In this document: positions 46,501 through 49,500 of the stretch, piece by piece
Layout: the number at the start of each line of letters is the position of its first letter
Position numbering within the stretch: the first letter of the stretch is position 1
DNA from: Escherichia coli
GTDB lineage: Bacteria > Pseudomonadota > Gammaproteobacteria > Enterobacterales > Enterobacteriaceae
Direction: 5' to 3' (one strand)
Assembly (NCBI RefSeq): GCF_022846255.1
Contig: NZ_AP025682.1
DNA length: 64,000 nt
Program-made: the position numbers

Positions 46501-49500
46501 CGAGAACGACGCCAGAGCCCTGTTTGAGTTTACTTCCGGCGTGAATGTTACTGAATCCCCGATCATCTATCGCGACGAAAGTATGCGCACCGCCTGCTCT
46601 CCCGATGGTTTATGCAGTGACGGCAATGGCCTTGAGCTGAAATGCCCGTTTACCTCCCGGGATTTCATGAAGTTCCGGCTCGGTGGTTTCGAGGCCATAA
46701 AATCGGCTTACATGGCCCAGGTGCAGTACAGCATGTGGGTGACGCGAAAAGATGCCTGGTACTTTGCCAACTATGACCCGCGTATGAAGCGTGAAGGCCT
46801 GCATTATGTCGTGATTGAGCAGAATGAAAAGTACATGGCGAATTTTGACGAGATGGTGCCGGAGTTCATCGAAAAAATGGACGTGGCACTGGCTGAAATT
46901 GGTTTTGTATTTGGGGAGCAATGGCGATGAAGCATCCTCACGATAATATCCGGGTAGGCGCGATCACTTTCGTCTACTCCGTTACAAAGCGAGGCTGGGT
47001 ATTTCCCGGCCTTTCTGTTATCCGAAATCCCCTGAAAGCACAGCGGCTGGCTGAGGAGATAAATAATAAACGGGGAGCTGTATGCACAAAGCATCTCCCG
47101 TTGAGTTAAGAACGAGTATCGAGATGGCACATAGCCTCGCTCAAATTGGAGTCAGGTTTGTGCCAATACCAGTAGAAACAGACGAAGAATTTCATACGTT
47201 AGCCGCATCCCTTTCACAAAAGCTGGAAATGATGGTGGCGAAAGCAGAAGCAGATGAGAGAGACCAGGTATGACAACCACTGAATGCATTTTTCTGGCAG
47301 CGGGCTTCATATTCTGTGTGCTTATGCTTGCCGACATGGGGCTTGTTCAGTGACACCTCAGCAAGAAAACGCCCTTCGCAGCATTGCCCGTCAGGCTAAT
47401 TCTGAAATCAAAAAAGCCAGACAGCAGTTTCCGGATAAAAACGTCGATGACATTTGCCGTAGCGTACTGAAGAAGCACCGCGAAACGGTAACGCTGATGG
47501 GATTCACACCGACTCATTTAAGCCTTGCGATCGGCATGTTGAACGGCGTCTTTAAGGAACGGTGAACATGAAAAGCAAAATCATCAGGGAGCTACAGGCT
47601 CCTTTTTTATTATTCGCATTTACCCTCAAGCGTATTAACCAACAATTCAGGGATTAATGAAAGATGGCGGACATCATTGATTCAGTATCAGAAATTGAAG
47701 AATTACAGCGCAATACAGCAATAAAAATGCGTCGTCTGAACCACCAGACTATATCTGCCACTCATTGTTGTGAGTGTGGCGATCCGATAGATGAACTAAG
47801 ACGTCTGGCCGTTCAGGGTTGTCGGACTTGTGCAAGTTGCCAGGAAGATCTGGAGCTTATCAGTAAACAGAGAGGTTCGAAGTGAGCGAAATTAACTCTC
47901 AGGCACTGCGTGAAGCGGCGGAACGTGCAATTCCAGCAATGGAACGCCTGTTAATGTTGCCAGCTGATGATGATTTGTTAAGTGAACAGGAACTTAAAGA
48001 TTACGGTGTGGATATTGATGCGCTCAACGCCTTCAAATTTCTGGCCGGACCAGAAACCGTGCTGGCACTGCGCCGTCAGGAAGTTTTTTAGTACGATCAA
48101 TGGTTAACTCAACTCTCATGATTCCCTCCTCATTGATTTACTGTGTGAATATACAGTTACTTTATAAACCTCTCATTTGGATTTTGCAATGTTTTAAGGG
48201 CACGAATTGCGAATAACCCTATACAAAAAAACCCGCCGAAGCGGGTCTTATCTTTCATTAATGCTTAGTCCTTACAGGAAAAGACCAGCATTTATATCCG
48301 TATGCGTGTGCATCCAAAACTCGGCGCTCTGAGTCAGGCGTCCCAGCTTTAGCTCGCGCCCTGCGATAACGACATTTTACCCAGCGGAAACCATCCGGAA
48401 GTTTTTTGGTAGGAATTTCTTTCAAAGCCATAAATAAACCTCGTTCCAGGCGAGCACTTCCCTGAAACTTGATAAAAATATGGGGATCCGCTAATGTACT
48501 GTTGTTGACGCAGTACTGATTGCGGGTGCTCTAACATCCCCAATCCGAGCCCTTCCCCGGCAAAGGAAGGGCTCAAATTCTTATGAAGGCTTCACATACG
48601 CCTTCAAAATCGACATAATACGCTCAGCTTCTTCCATCGTGATGTTGGTAGGCAACCCCTGAACTGTAATCATTGCCCCTGTTTCAGGTCGAACAACGAT
48701 CGGTAAATTGAAAGTCTGCACTTTCTCATGTCTTGCAGCTTTAGCTTTCTCCATCTTCTGCTCCACCGCATCAAACCCATCTAAATTTCCTTCGGTGTCT
48801 GCCAAGTTGACTAAAGTCCCCACTCGCGTGTACTCCTCAAACTTATTGACAGCACTTTTAAACCGGCTTCGATAATTATGAATGGTGGATTCACTGGGCT
48901 TGTTTGCCTGAGTTTCAGCATAACGAGTAATGAGGTCTTCAACGTTCAGGTCGCGCACATCATCGTTGTCACTCGTGTCGACCACAGATAACAGCAGCAA
49001 CGCAGAATTTTTTAAGTTGCGAGCTGTTGCTTCGTTGATCAGCCCCAAGTTAGGCAACTTCATAAGAAAATCGAAGAATGCTTGCGTTGAGTAATTATCG
49101 TTCATAAGCATCTCTCATTGTTATCCATAGGTGTAGTGTAGATTCAGAGGTTTTACCGATCAATGTTTTTTTTATCGATCGATCAATCTTTTTTTAAATC
49201 TAACCAATCCCACCCACTTAAAAACACTCAACAACATTTCACCCCCTCAGAAACAAAATAAAATAAACTATATAAAACAACAAAATACACAGATCTATAA
49301 AACAGACAACCGCCCCCGCCTCCCCCACCCCATACTGAATTTAGATACAGCCTTAGTTAATCAACCTTCGTTCACCAGAGCAGCACATATGCCTTCGGAC
49401 TTTTTAGTTAAGCCACAAATGGCAGTTTGCACAGTTCTGGTAGATTTGCCCTTACCAGAGCCTCCGCGAATTGTGGAGGTACGGCATTTCCGCATCTGGC

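Follow-up and report, generated by a model that had tools for sequence, protein, structure and literature searches.

An A/C-rich tract upstream of a prophage accessory operon in Escherichia coli is most likely ordinary control DNA between a predicted LexA site and a promoter

Why should some 130 bp of prophage DNA be made up mostly of A and C on one strand, and does such a skew do anything for the gene next to it? The question is raised by positions 49201-49335 of the window, that is, of the whole stretch of 64,000 nucleotides of E. coli contig NZ_AP025682.1 analysed here. On the + strand the tract contains 61 A, 49 C, 5 G and 20 T, an A+C fraction of 0.815, which ranks first among the 135-nt windows of the 64 kb (mean 0.512, SD 0.052; runner-up 0.689); the two longest G-free runs of the 64 kb, 68 nt (49182-49249) and 41 nt (49251-49291), both lie at the tract. 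At 5.8 SD, the A/C skew first reported in a preliminary description of the locus is thus real and far above chance. That description had also spoken of almost no G or T, which holds for G (3.7%) and not for T (15%), and of an asymmetry between purines and pyrimidines, which the counts contradict: 66 purines (A+G) stand against 69 pyrimidines (C+T) on the + strand. The skew is one of amino (A, C) against keto (G, T) bases; ideas of triplex or H-DNA therefore do not apply, and a tract of that kind was rejected on the same counts. Only the final 22 nt are pyrimidine-rich, the tract ending, as described, in a polyC run, CCGCCCCCGCCTCCCCCACCCC, at 49310-49331 (+); positions 49333-49335 of the interval as first delimited overlap a LexA-type box. 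The tract is non-coding and its composition exceptional within the 64-kb window, in line with the earlier remark that it is unusual for coding or intergenic DNA.

The tract lies in a gap of 296 nt, limited by a methyltransferase fragment and the orphan gene, 5' of a minus-strand operon encoding a 174-aa phrog_2602 protein and a 57-aa ORF; its placement upstream of the orphan gene promoter is correct. The carrier of the operon is a lambdoid prophage, of which bet, exo, xis and int are all on the + strand in the window. The tract, the operon and its flank are as follows.

49201-49335, minus strand: the tract, A/C-rich on the + strand, G/T-rich and C-poor on the minus strand; filler with one conserved motif
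48581-49105, minus strand: orphan gene, 174 aa, phrog_2602, first gene of the operon
48258-48431, minus strand: second ORF, 57 aa, phrog_33859; DNA homology with Salmonella relatives spans the ORF to 48226
48218-48248, minus strand: intrinsic terminator of the operon, GACCCGC-TTCG-GCGGGT then T7, read from the sequence
49408-49995, minus strand: C-terminal fragment of a C5 cytosine methyltransferase, covering only positions 239-320 of the 324 of PF00145

Weak Rfam matches to terminator-bearing families cluster at the operon terminator (48218-48248). The methyltransferase fragment, which has a full-length relative in E. coli H5/H6, is co-directional with the orphan gene and ends 56 nt before the LexA-type box; it is flanking DNA, outside the control region. 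Since the operon is on the minus strand, the tract as read on the gene's sense strand is poor in C and rich in G and T. Most likely, this stretch is ordinary non-coding control DNA, a spacer of fixed length between a likely LexA (DNA-damage) switch site and the gene promoter; that it is, within a non-coding upstream control region, a length-constrained regulatory spacer of a minus-strand prophage accessory operon is given somewhat better than an even chance. The elements on which this reading is built are the following.

49135-49163, minus strand: promoter P1 of the orphan operon, -35 TTGATC (49163-49158), 17-bp spacer, -10 TACACT (49140-49135)
49157-49195, minus strand: two direct repeats, A7/8-N-ATTGATCG, with a CGATCGAT palindrome; 16 nt, 94% identical, 23-bp spacing
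49275-49298, minus strand: conserved motif inside the tract, TAGATCTGTGTA, with GATC at 49292-49295 and invariant columns GAT..TA......TG
49310-49331, minus strand (polyC on +): polyG block GGGGTGGGGGAGGCGGGGGCGG, lineage-specific, G-quadruplex-prone and hypervariable
49333-49352, no strand assigned: LexA-type SOS box TACTGAATTTAGATACAGCC, CTG-N10-CAG, distal boundary of the conserved upstream region

P1 is the top sigma-70 match (11.1-12.6 bits) and falls in the same alignment column in 15/15 relatives; a consensus scan for promoters and terminators returned nothing in the gap, P1 being missed because only 8 of its 12 positions match. An antisense -10-like TAGATT overlaps P1 in several relatives, with poor -35 elements. 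The direct repeats overlap the P1 -35 and probably form an operator: their columns CGA.CGA and TTGATCG are invariant in a 15-sequence alignment, and the length of the A-tract (A8/A7) varies among copies. Four GATC sites (49158, 49177, 49181 and 49292) fall within 138 bp, at least four being present in only 0.6% of 190-bp windows; three of the four are family-invariant, one lies inside the -35 hexamer and three in the operator repeats. Regions sensitive to Dam methylation, such as those of agn43, P22 gtr, Salmonella opvAB and Mu mom, have clustered GATC sites. The present region resembles them in its clustered, conserved GATC sites at a promoter, here that of a phage accessory gene, and differs in that the sites lie within a putative direct-repeat and palindrome operator, the GATC cluster giving no fit by eye to an OxyR-type consensus. 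Within the tract, fits of CRP, OxyR and DnaA boxes to the TAGATCTGTGTA motif were likewise tried by eye and failed. The motif is overlapped by an IHF-like 13-mer, AAACAACAAAATA (+, 49275-49287); the IHF core WATCAANNNNTTR is matched at 7/9 positions in the window and at 7-8/9 at the aligned position in nearly all relatives, against a per-sequence background of 1-10%. IHF might bind at 49275-49298, a tentative suggestion given the weak consensus match.

A tract absent or unconserved in close relatives, which would have counted against the preliminary description, is not what the comparison shows. The tract is present in 8/8 near-identical copies, and its composition, length and flanks are kept in about 25 distant relatives. 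These related prophage loci agree with the window in layout, in the spacing of the elements and in being depleted of C on the sense strand; the filler between the elements cannot be aligned. The module is found in lambdoid prophages of Escherichia/Shigella-like hosts, Salmonella, Citrobacter, Enterobacter and Atlantibacter. Megablast and blastn searches, with the region as query for 50,697 phage records and with the module as query for 5,426 complete E. coli genomes, gave no hit covering the tract; they matched only the methyltransferase fragment and an 82-bp piece at an ASCH junction. From the LexA-type box to the GATCT motif the distance is 53-57 bp in all relatives, and from the GATC to the operator it falls into three classes, 80-82, 113-115 and 125-126 bp, with differences of 33 and 11 bp; the helical-phase argument drawn from these rests on three length classes only, with a chance of coincidence of about 7%. 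The 130 nt before the operator rank in the lowest 2% for C in 16/16 relatives tested, always on the strand of the gene, and most relatives also place them within about the top 1% for G+T on that strand. Among the 8 near-identical copies, 7/10 variable sites are in the tract, as compared with 2 in 525 nt of coding sequence, an excess that fits weak sequence constraint. A recombination junction, which had been named as something to check here, finds loose agreement in the fact that, within the tract, only the polyG block of 20-22 nt is replaced in other lineages; the mosaic breakpoints, at about 49426 and 49978, are both outside the tract.

From this anatomy, conservation, spacing and family-wide skew, all computed here, we infer an architectural role. 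On the strand of the gene, the order would be the LexA-type box, a 39-nt variable segment (polyG in this case), the conserved GATC/weak-IHF motif, about 95 nt of G/T-rich and C-poor filler, the two A-tract-plus-ATTGATCG repeats over the -35, the genes and the terminator. The tract would keep the two distal sites, the LexA box and the GATC/IHF-like motif, in constant spacing and helical register with the promoter and operator, while the bases of the filler itself could change freely. Sense-direction transcription would then be the source of the depletion of C, and in part of A, on that strand, since in most relatives the module sits within a co-directional early operon, either through C-to-T and A-to-G deamination on the exposed non-template strand or through selection against C-rich, Rho-loading untranslated RNA. 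Some points weigh against this proposal. The strand-specific skew is not predicted by an architectural DNA role alone; moreover, intrinsically bent DNA would show AA/TT periodicity, with A/T tracts phased at about 10.5 bp, and no excess of AA/TT power at 10-11.5 bp was seen in the window and 10 relatives (91-466 of 500 shuffles doing as well), so that curved DNA was rejected.

The same data may be read with less function in them. The skew could be functionless, the filler being neutral DNA under strand-biased mutational drift, of which only the length and the embedded motifs matter. The filler is indeed unalignable between clades next to invariant flanks; substitutions and changes in homopolymer length concentrate in it when near-identical copies are compared; and a surplus of keto bases such as it shows is what deamination of an exposed single strand is expected to leave. 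Yet lineages independent of one another have arrived at an equally extreme rank of C depletion, which is equally readable as selection. Neutral drift is on balance unlikely, though it retains some weight, and it overlaps the length-constrained spacer favoured here, the sole difference between the two being whether composition is selected.

Another reading involves Rho. Read as plus-strand RNA, the tract resembles a Rho loading site: a Rho-dependent terminator at this place would act on rightward (+, pL) transcripts, whose C-rich and G-poor RNA would load Rho and so stop those that are not antiterminated or are antisense to the operon. By C minus G, the + strand of the 64 kb reaches its highest values in the windows 49184-49261 (25 C, 1 G) and 49299-49376 (31 C, 8 G), the + strand RNA of the tract is nearly unfolded (MFE -2.1 kcal/mol over 171 nt), and, bet, exo, xis and int being on the + strand, pL transcripts cross the module in antisense. 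Like rutA/rutB of lambda tR1, the RNA is for more than 100 nt rich in C, with hardly any G and no structure. Shuffled + strand sequences fold as poorly as the tract, however, so that its lack of structure follows from composition. The density of YC dimers is only 1.5 SD over the window mean, the centre of the tract being A-rich, and is unremarkable; no + strand promoter of quality feeds the tract, the best being TTGTTA-15-TAGATT (7.2 bits); and, as is established in lambda biology, N-modified pL transcripts resist Rho. The skew follows the orientation of the gene. Only in the window and the closest copies is the module inverted with respect to pL; in most relatives it points the same way as its neighbours, so that there the C-rich strand, at variance with rut sites, is the antisense and not the transcribed one, which argues against Rho loading as its purpose. 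A Rho-dependent terminator is thus quite unlikely.

A further reading, decidedly unlikely in its turn, would have composition selected and the spacer filtering transcription by direction at the border of a mobile module. If this were true, RNA made in the direction of the genes would be C-free and load no Rho, so that read-through from an upstream operon or from a distal SOS promoter would reach the genes; RNA made in the opposite direction, being C-rich, G-free and unstructured, would recruit Rho and stop antisense transcription; and the module would work in either orientation of insertion, including that seen here, inverted with respect to pL.

The distal end of the spacer is set by the LexA-type box, one of two AT-spaced TACTG-N10-CAG matches in the window. 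With a matrix of 19 LexA sites of E. coli it scores 15.0 bits, the second-best value in the 64 kb, and matches 15/20 positions of the consensus TACTG(TA)5CAGTA; its columns TG...CAG are invariant in the 15-sequence alignment, and the aligned box in relatives scores from 5 to 20 bits, ranking 1-5 per locus. Positions 49333-49352 are therefore a likely, predicted LexA site. The best box of the window on the same matrix, a strong one, belongs to another gene of the module:

48139-48158, no strand assigned: LexA box of a truncated dinI homologue, 24.4 bits

The homologue starts with an ATG at 48119 and is reduced to a 28-codon remnant, 18/20 identical to a DinI-domain protein in one relative (L094); its box shows that the module carries SOS-controlled genes. 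LexA-controlled antirepressor operons are known from Gifsy phages (PMC3121763). With such SOS-regulated prophage accessory genes, dinI homologues included, the locus shares the association of a LexA-type box with a self-contained lambdoid-prophage module; in the known cases, though, the box overlaps or directly follows the promoter, whereas the present one is set apart from P1, the sole conserved promoter, by the skewed spacer, some 190 bp further upstream. A second promoter overlapping the LexA box was considered and rejected, no candidate being positionally conserved in the relatives on either strand; the best local one, TTGATT-15-TAAATT (8.4 bits), is confined to the clade of the window. 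The lack of a conserved promoter at the box and its distance from P1 weigh against the spacer reading, as they offer no evident route for control by LexA.

A small, hydrophobic and SOS-induced peptide, similar to the type I toxins TisB and DinQ, might be encoded by a 29-codon GTG-initiated ORF, MGEAGAVVCFIDLCILLFYIVYFILFLRG, of GRAVY 1.93, which on the strand of the gene begins 9 nt past the LexA box. Hydrophobic codons, however, are the default of T/G-rich DNA, the ORF has no Shine-Dalgarno sequence, its frame and sequence are conserved in no relative and confined to the clade of the window, and in a near-identical copy (L098) a one-base change in a G-run shortens it to 10 codons. A peptide is accordingly extremely unlikely and was rejected for want of conservation among relatives.

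The variable segment next to the box takes, in the window, the form of the polyG block. Its G4Hunter score of -2.52 (49307-49331) is the strongest in the window and above the cut-off of about 1.5; the block has only three runs of at least 3 G, and no match to the canonical four-run G-quadruplex (G3+, loops of 1-7 nt) exists anywhere in the window. A variable length of the polyC run, suspected from the start, is borne out by G4/G5 changes on the strand of the gene between copies: 4/10 variable sites of the 8 near-identical copies, these length changes included, fall within the 22 nt of the block. JGI metagenomes, scanned with exact flanks for alleles differing in polyG length, yielded none. A case could be made for a G-quadruplex switch, in which a quadruplex in the non-template DNA or the nascent RNA, just downstream of the LexA box, would tune or attenuate expression and slippage of the G-run would generate heritable expression variants. 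Both the score and the G4/G5 polymorphism lend it support, as does a distant relative (L055) with a hairpin terminator after a LexA-box-like site and upstream of the promoter of the gene. With promoter-proximal G-quadruplex elements the block has in common a very high G4Hunter score and its place upstream of a gene, on the non-template strand; it departs from them, however, in having three G-runs instead of four, in being lineage-specific and in being replaceable by AT-rich DNA. The promoter search gave none conserved in position that would transcribe it, and it is restricted to the closest relatives, its place being taken elsewhere by unrelated AT-rich sequence of equal length in relatives of 90% identity; the block thus cannot explain a family-wide tract, and a switch of this sort is very unlikely.

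Nor does the tract look like an RNA gene. By analogy, its minus strand might supply a GU-rich, GcvB-like seed, or its plus strand a CA-rich sponge for GcvB in the manner of AgvB; UGUUGUU-type stretches on the minus strand and CAACAACA-type stretches on the plus strand speak for this by composition only. Prophage anti-sRNAs that mimic GcvB targets do exist, AgvB being one; sRNAs of its type measure about 60 nt and share a 42-nt 3' region that is conserved (PMC4104026), and the tract has no counterpart to it. There is moreover no dedicated promoter, and the sequence is unconserved in relatives, which leaves a regulatory RNA hardly any likelihood. A structured non-coding RNA was rejected as well: Rfam gave no match in 49100-49400 at E up to 10, RNAalifold predicted 0 pairs over 11 relatives, and folding of the tract gave z-scores of -0.65 for the minus strand and +0.21 for the plus strand. 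A terminator scan found no terminator within the tract on either strand. Tandem or iteron repeats were set aside, the search for them having given only a weak two-copy 24-nt repeat and a 10-nt array of 2.2 copies, both likely composition artefacts.

Taken alone, the tract is of little weight, being unusually skewed promoter-upstream DNA. It does flag a compact mobile module that brings together a LexA box, a GATC-rich putative operator, a protein with a recombinase core-binding fold and a 57-aa partner, and the regulatory layout may be regarded as a starting point for asking when the phrog_2602 family is expressed. In addition, the family-wide, strand-specific loss of C in a spacer whose sequence is unconstrained offers a small and clean case for setting mutational against selective skew.

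A further point concerns the protein. The N-terminal fold of the phrog_2602 protein is that of the core-binding domain of tyrosine recombinases, which makes it a plausible candidate DNA-binding partner of the conserved repeats; the catalytic domain is lacking, and the C-terminus is a beta-hairpin/helix domain. Neither Foldseek against the PDB (no significant match) nor a sequence search against PDB chains (no match) linked it to a known structure. Stand-alone recombinase-derived DNA-binding regulators of temperate phages are exemplified by MrpR of SPbeta and SroF of phi3T, from which the phrog_2602 protein differs in having no recombinase catalytic domain and a different, beta-hairpin/helix, C-terminal domain, with no detectable sequence similarity to either. 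In the Shiga-toxin phage VT2-Sakai, a phrog_2602 relative occupies the position of rexAB, a slot known as a site of exclusion genes expressed in the lysogen.

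The window carries a lambdoid prophage in which a short run of minus-strand ORFs sits within a plus-strand block (bet, exo, xis, int). The features are the following:

45468, plus: bet, prophage gene
46250, plus: exo, prophage gene
48119-48158, minus: truncated dinI homologue with the strongest LexA box of the window, TACTGTGTGAATATACAGTT
48258-48431, minus: 57-aa ORF (phrog_33859)
48581-49105, minus: 174-aa orphan gene (phrog_2602)
49408-49995, minus: C5 cytosine methyltransferase, C-terminal fragment only (positions 239-320 of the 324 in the Pfam profile)
51037, plus: xis, prophage gene
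51233, plus: int, prophage gene, followed by chromosomal torS
among the minus-strand ORFs, minus: strong intrinsic terminator

The identity of torS to E. coli is 98.4% at best, and the best full-length relative of the methyltransferase fragment is in E. coli strains H5/H6 (DNA identity 92%). The dinI remnant is 28 codons long, shares 18 of 20 residues with a DinI-domain protein from a Salmonella relative and ends abruptly at its junction with an ea22-like gene (47882-48091). The orphan protein gave no match in Pfam, PADLOC or NCBIfam; its homologues number 35 and span Enterobacterales.

Most of the 296 nt separating the orphan gene from the methyltransferase fragment is taken up by the tract (49201-49335), which the preliminary description correctly placed upstream of the orphan gene. 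Its strong A/C skew is real: the plus strand holds 61 A, 49 C, 5 G and 20 T (A+C 0.815), against a mean of 0.512 (SD 0.052) and a second-highest value of 0.689 over 135-nt windows of the 64 kb, which makes the tract the extreme by a wide margin. Its G-free runs of 68 and 41 nt are the two longest in the window, and in a 100-nt profile GC skew falls to -0.87 and AT skew rises to +0.50. The near-absence of G or T claimed earlier holds for G, but not for T, which makes up 15% of the tract. Nor is there the purine/pyrimidine asymmetry described, the counts being balanced (66 and 69); the skew is one of amino (A, C) versus keto (G, T) bases, and therefore triplex DNA and other purine/pyrimidine-based ideas do not apply. 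Since the orphan gene lies on the minus strand, the tract is G/T-rich and C-poor on its sense strand.

Relatives were collected as 10 genome loci, 80 viral loci and 13 contigs, these last encoding identical or near-identical proteins. Alignment of 320 nt upstream from 15 loci (protein identity 62-90%) showed conservation confined to three islands, the remaining DNA being unalignable. The island adjoining the gene, AAAAAAGATTGATCGATCGAT-A7/8-CATTGATCGGTAAAACCTCTGAATCTACACTA, holds two direct repeats of 16 nt with a 23-bp spacing, three GATC sites and a predicted sigma-70 promoter, TTGATC-17-TAnACT, which is the top-scoring match in the same alignment column in 15/15 sequences. The A-run between the operator repeats (49165-49173), directly before the -35, is A8 in the window and two other copies and A7 in five of the window's seven other near-identical copies, shifting repeat spacing by 1 bp. 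The second island, TAGATCTGTGTA, lies inside the tract, with columns GAT..TA......TG invariant; its complement shares 7-8 of 9 positions with the IHF core WATCAANNNNTTR in almost all relatives (7/9 in the window). The third is the distal LexA-type box, of the form CTG-N10-CAG; its sequence in the window is TACTGAATTTAGATACAGCC (49333-49352).

The distance from LexA-type box to GATC motif is 53-57 bp in every locus, and that from GATC motif to operator falls into classes of 80-82, 113-115 or 125-126 bp. The steps of 33 and 11 bp would fit conserved helical phasing, a tentative reading of three classes. Comparing related prophages, as had been suggested, uncovered both conservation and length variation, the latter including G-run changes. 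Filler is unalignable between clades; nonetheless, the C content of the 130 nt preceding the operator ranks in the lowest 2% in 16/16 relatives tested, and their G+T content ranks in about the top 1% in most of the 16, always on the gene's strand. Because this C depletion recurs in all 16 despite unalignable filler, the skew is a family-wide property of the regulatory region, strongest in the window's clade.

The tract may best be regarded as the upstream control region of the orphan operon, in which a length-constrained, sequence-free spacer would link the distal LexA-type box and the GATC/IHF-like motif to promoter and operator. The skew most likely stems from sense-direction transcription in an ancestral co-directional arrangement, possibly because bases of the exposed non-template strand deaminate (C to T, A to G), or possibly because C-rich untranslated RNA able to load Rho is selected against. 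Though uncharacterised, the tract is most likely regulatory DNA of an ordinary kind, with a strand-specific composition.

Plus-strand tract RNA, which runs in the pL direction in this genome, does show hallmarks of a Rho loading site and may act as one here as a by-product; yet module orientation in relatives, ordinary YC density and N-mediated antitermination argue against this as its purpose. That RNA barely folds (-2.1 kcal/mol), and the minus-strand RNA is no more stable than its shuffled versions (z = -0.65). A regulatory RNA is unlikely: Rfam gave no family match at the tract at E up to 10, and RNAalifold found zero conserved pairs in 11 relatives. Equally unlikely is a small toxin. The 29-codon hydrophobic ORF just past the LexA-type box was rejected as a peptide gene, being devoid of a ribosome-binding site and conserved in no relative; in one near-identical copy, a single-base difference in a G-run shortens it to 10 codons. 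AA/TT periodicity of 10-11 bp was absent from the tract, and its internal repeats are weak two-copy matches.

The 22-nt polyC/polyG block is confined to the window's closest relatives, and lineages of 90% identity carry unrelated AT-rich sequence of equal length in its place. On the gene's strand it scores highest of the whole window by G4Hunter (-2.52), although with only three runs of at least three G it lacks the canonical quadruplex motif; a G-quadruplex switch could apply to the closest clade only. Eight near-identical copies differ at 10 sites over 840 nt: the tract contains 7 of these and the 525 coding nucleotides 2; the block accounts for 4, including G4/G5 length changes.

The chief weakness of the control-region reading is that no conserved promoter was found at the LexA-type box, about 190 bp upstream of the operon promoter, in the aligned relatives. 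TACTG-N10-CAG with an AT spacer matches twice in the 64 kb, at 49333-49352 and at the dinI box. These are also the top two scores in the window (15.0 and 24.4 bits, respectively) under a matrix derived from 19 LexA sites of E. coli, by which the aligned boxes rank 1-5 within the relatives' loci. In a distant relative (L055, 3800-4000), a LexA-box-like site overlaps a TTGAAG-16-TATACA promoter, and a hairpin-plus-U7 terminator comes no more than about 10 nt later. The whole arrangement precedes the promoter of the gene itself and would be a tiny SOS-controlled transcription unit or attenuator.

A 2.1-kb block (47881-49978) comprising the ea22-like gene, dinI remnant, 57-aa ORF, orphan gene, tract and methyltransferase fragment recurs at 99.4% identity in another phage backbone (loci L099-L101), between terminase small-subunit and lambda-P-like genes; it was not found among 5,426 complete E. 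coli genomes. In the Shiga-toxin phage VT2-Sakai, orf22 (loci L104, AP000363 9877-10398, and L036) encodes a 44%-identical homologue and sits between cI and N, the rexAB position in lambda. Its promoter shares the -10 TAAACT of the orphan family, but its operator is a different palindrome (TCTTGA-N10-TCAAGA) and the skewed spacer is missing.

Elsewhere, the longest A-free run of the window (81 nt, 38326-38406, plus) is probably ordinary; it corresponds to a T-free sense stretch, coding for a Lys/Arg/Glu-rich segment, within a 203-aa ORF on the minus strand (37908-38519). At 50096-50155 (plus), within the phrog_7123 ORF (50066-50356), there are 7.5 copies (96% matches) of the 8-bp unit CAAGACAT, encoding KTSRHQDI repeats; the unit length is not divisible by three. 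Annotated lengths of the gene are 89 aa in two near-identical copies and 96 aa in another; therefore, the number of repeat units varies and could change the reading frame.
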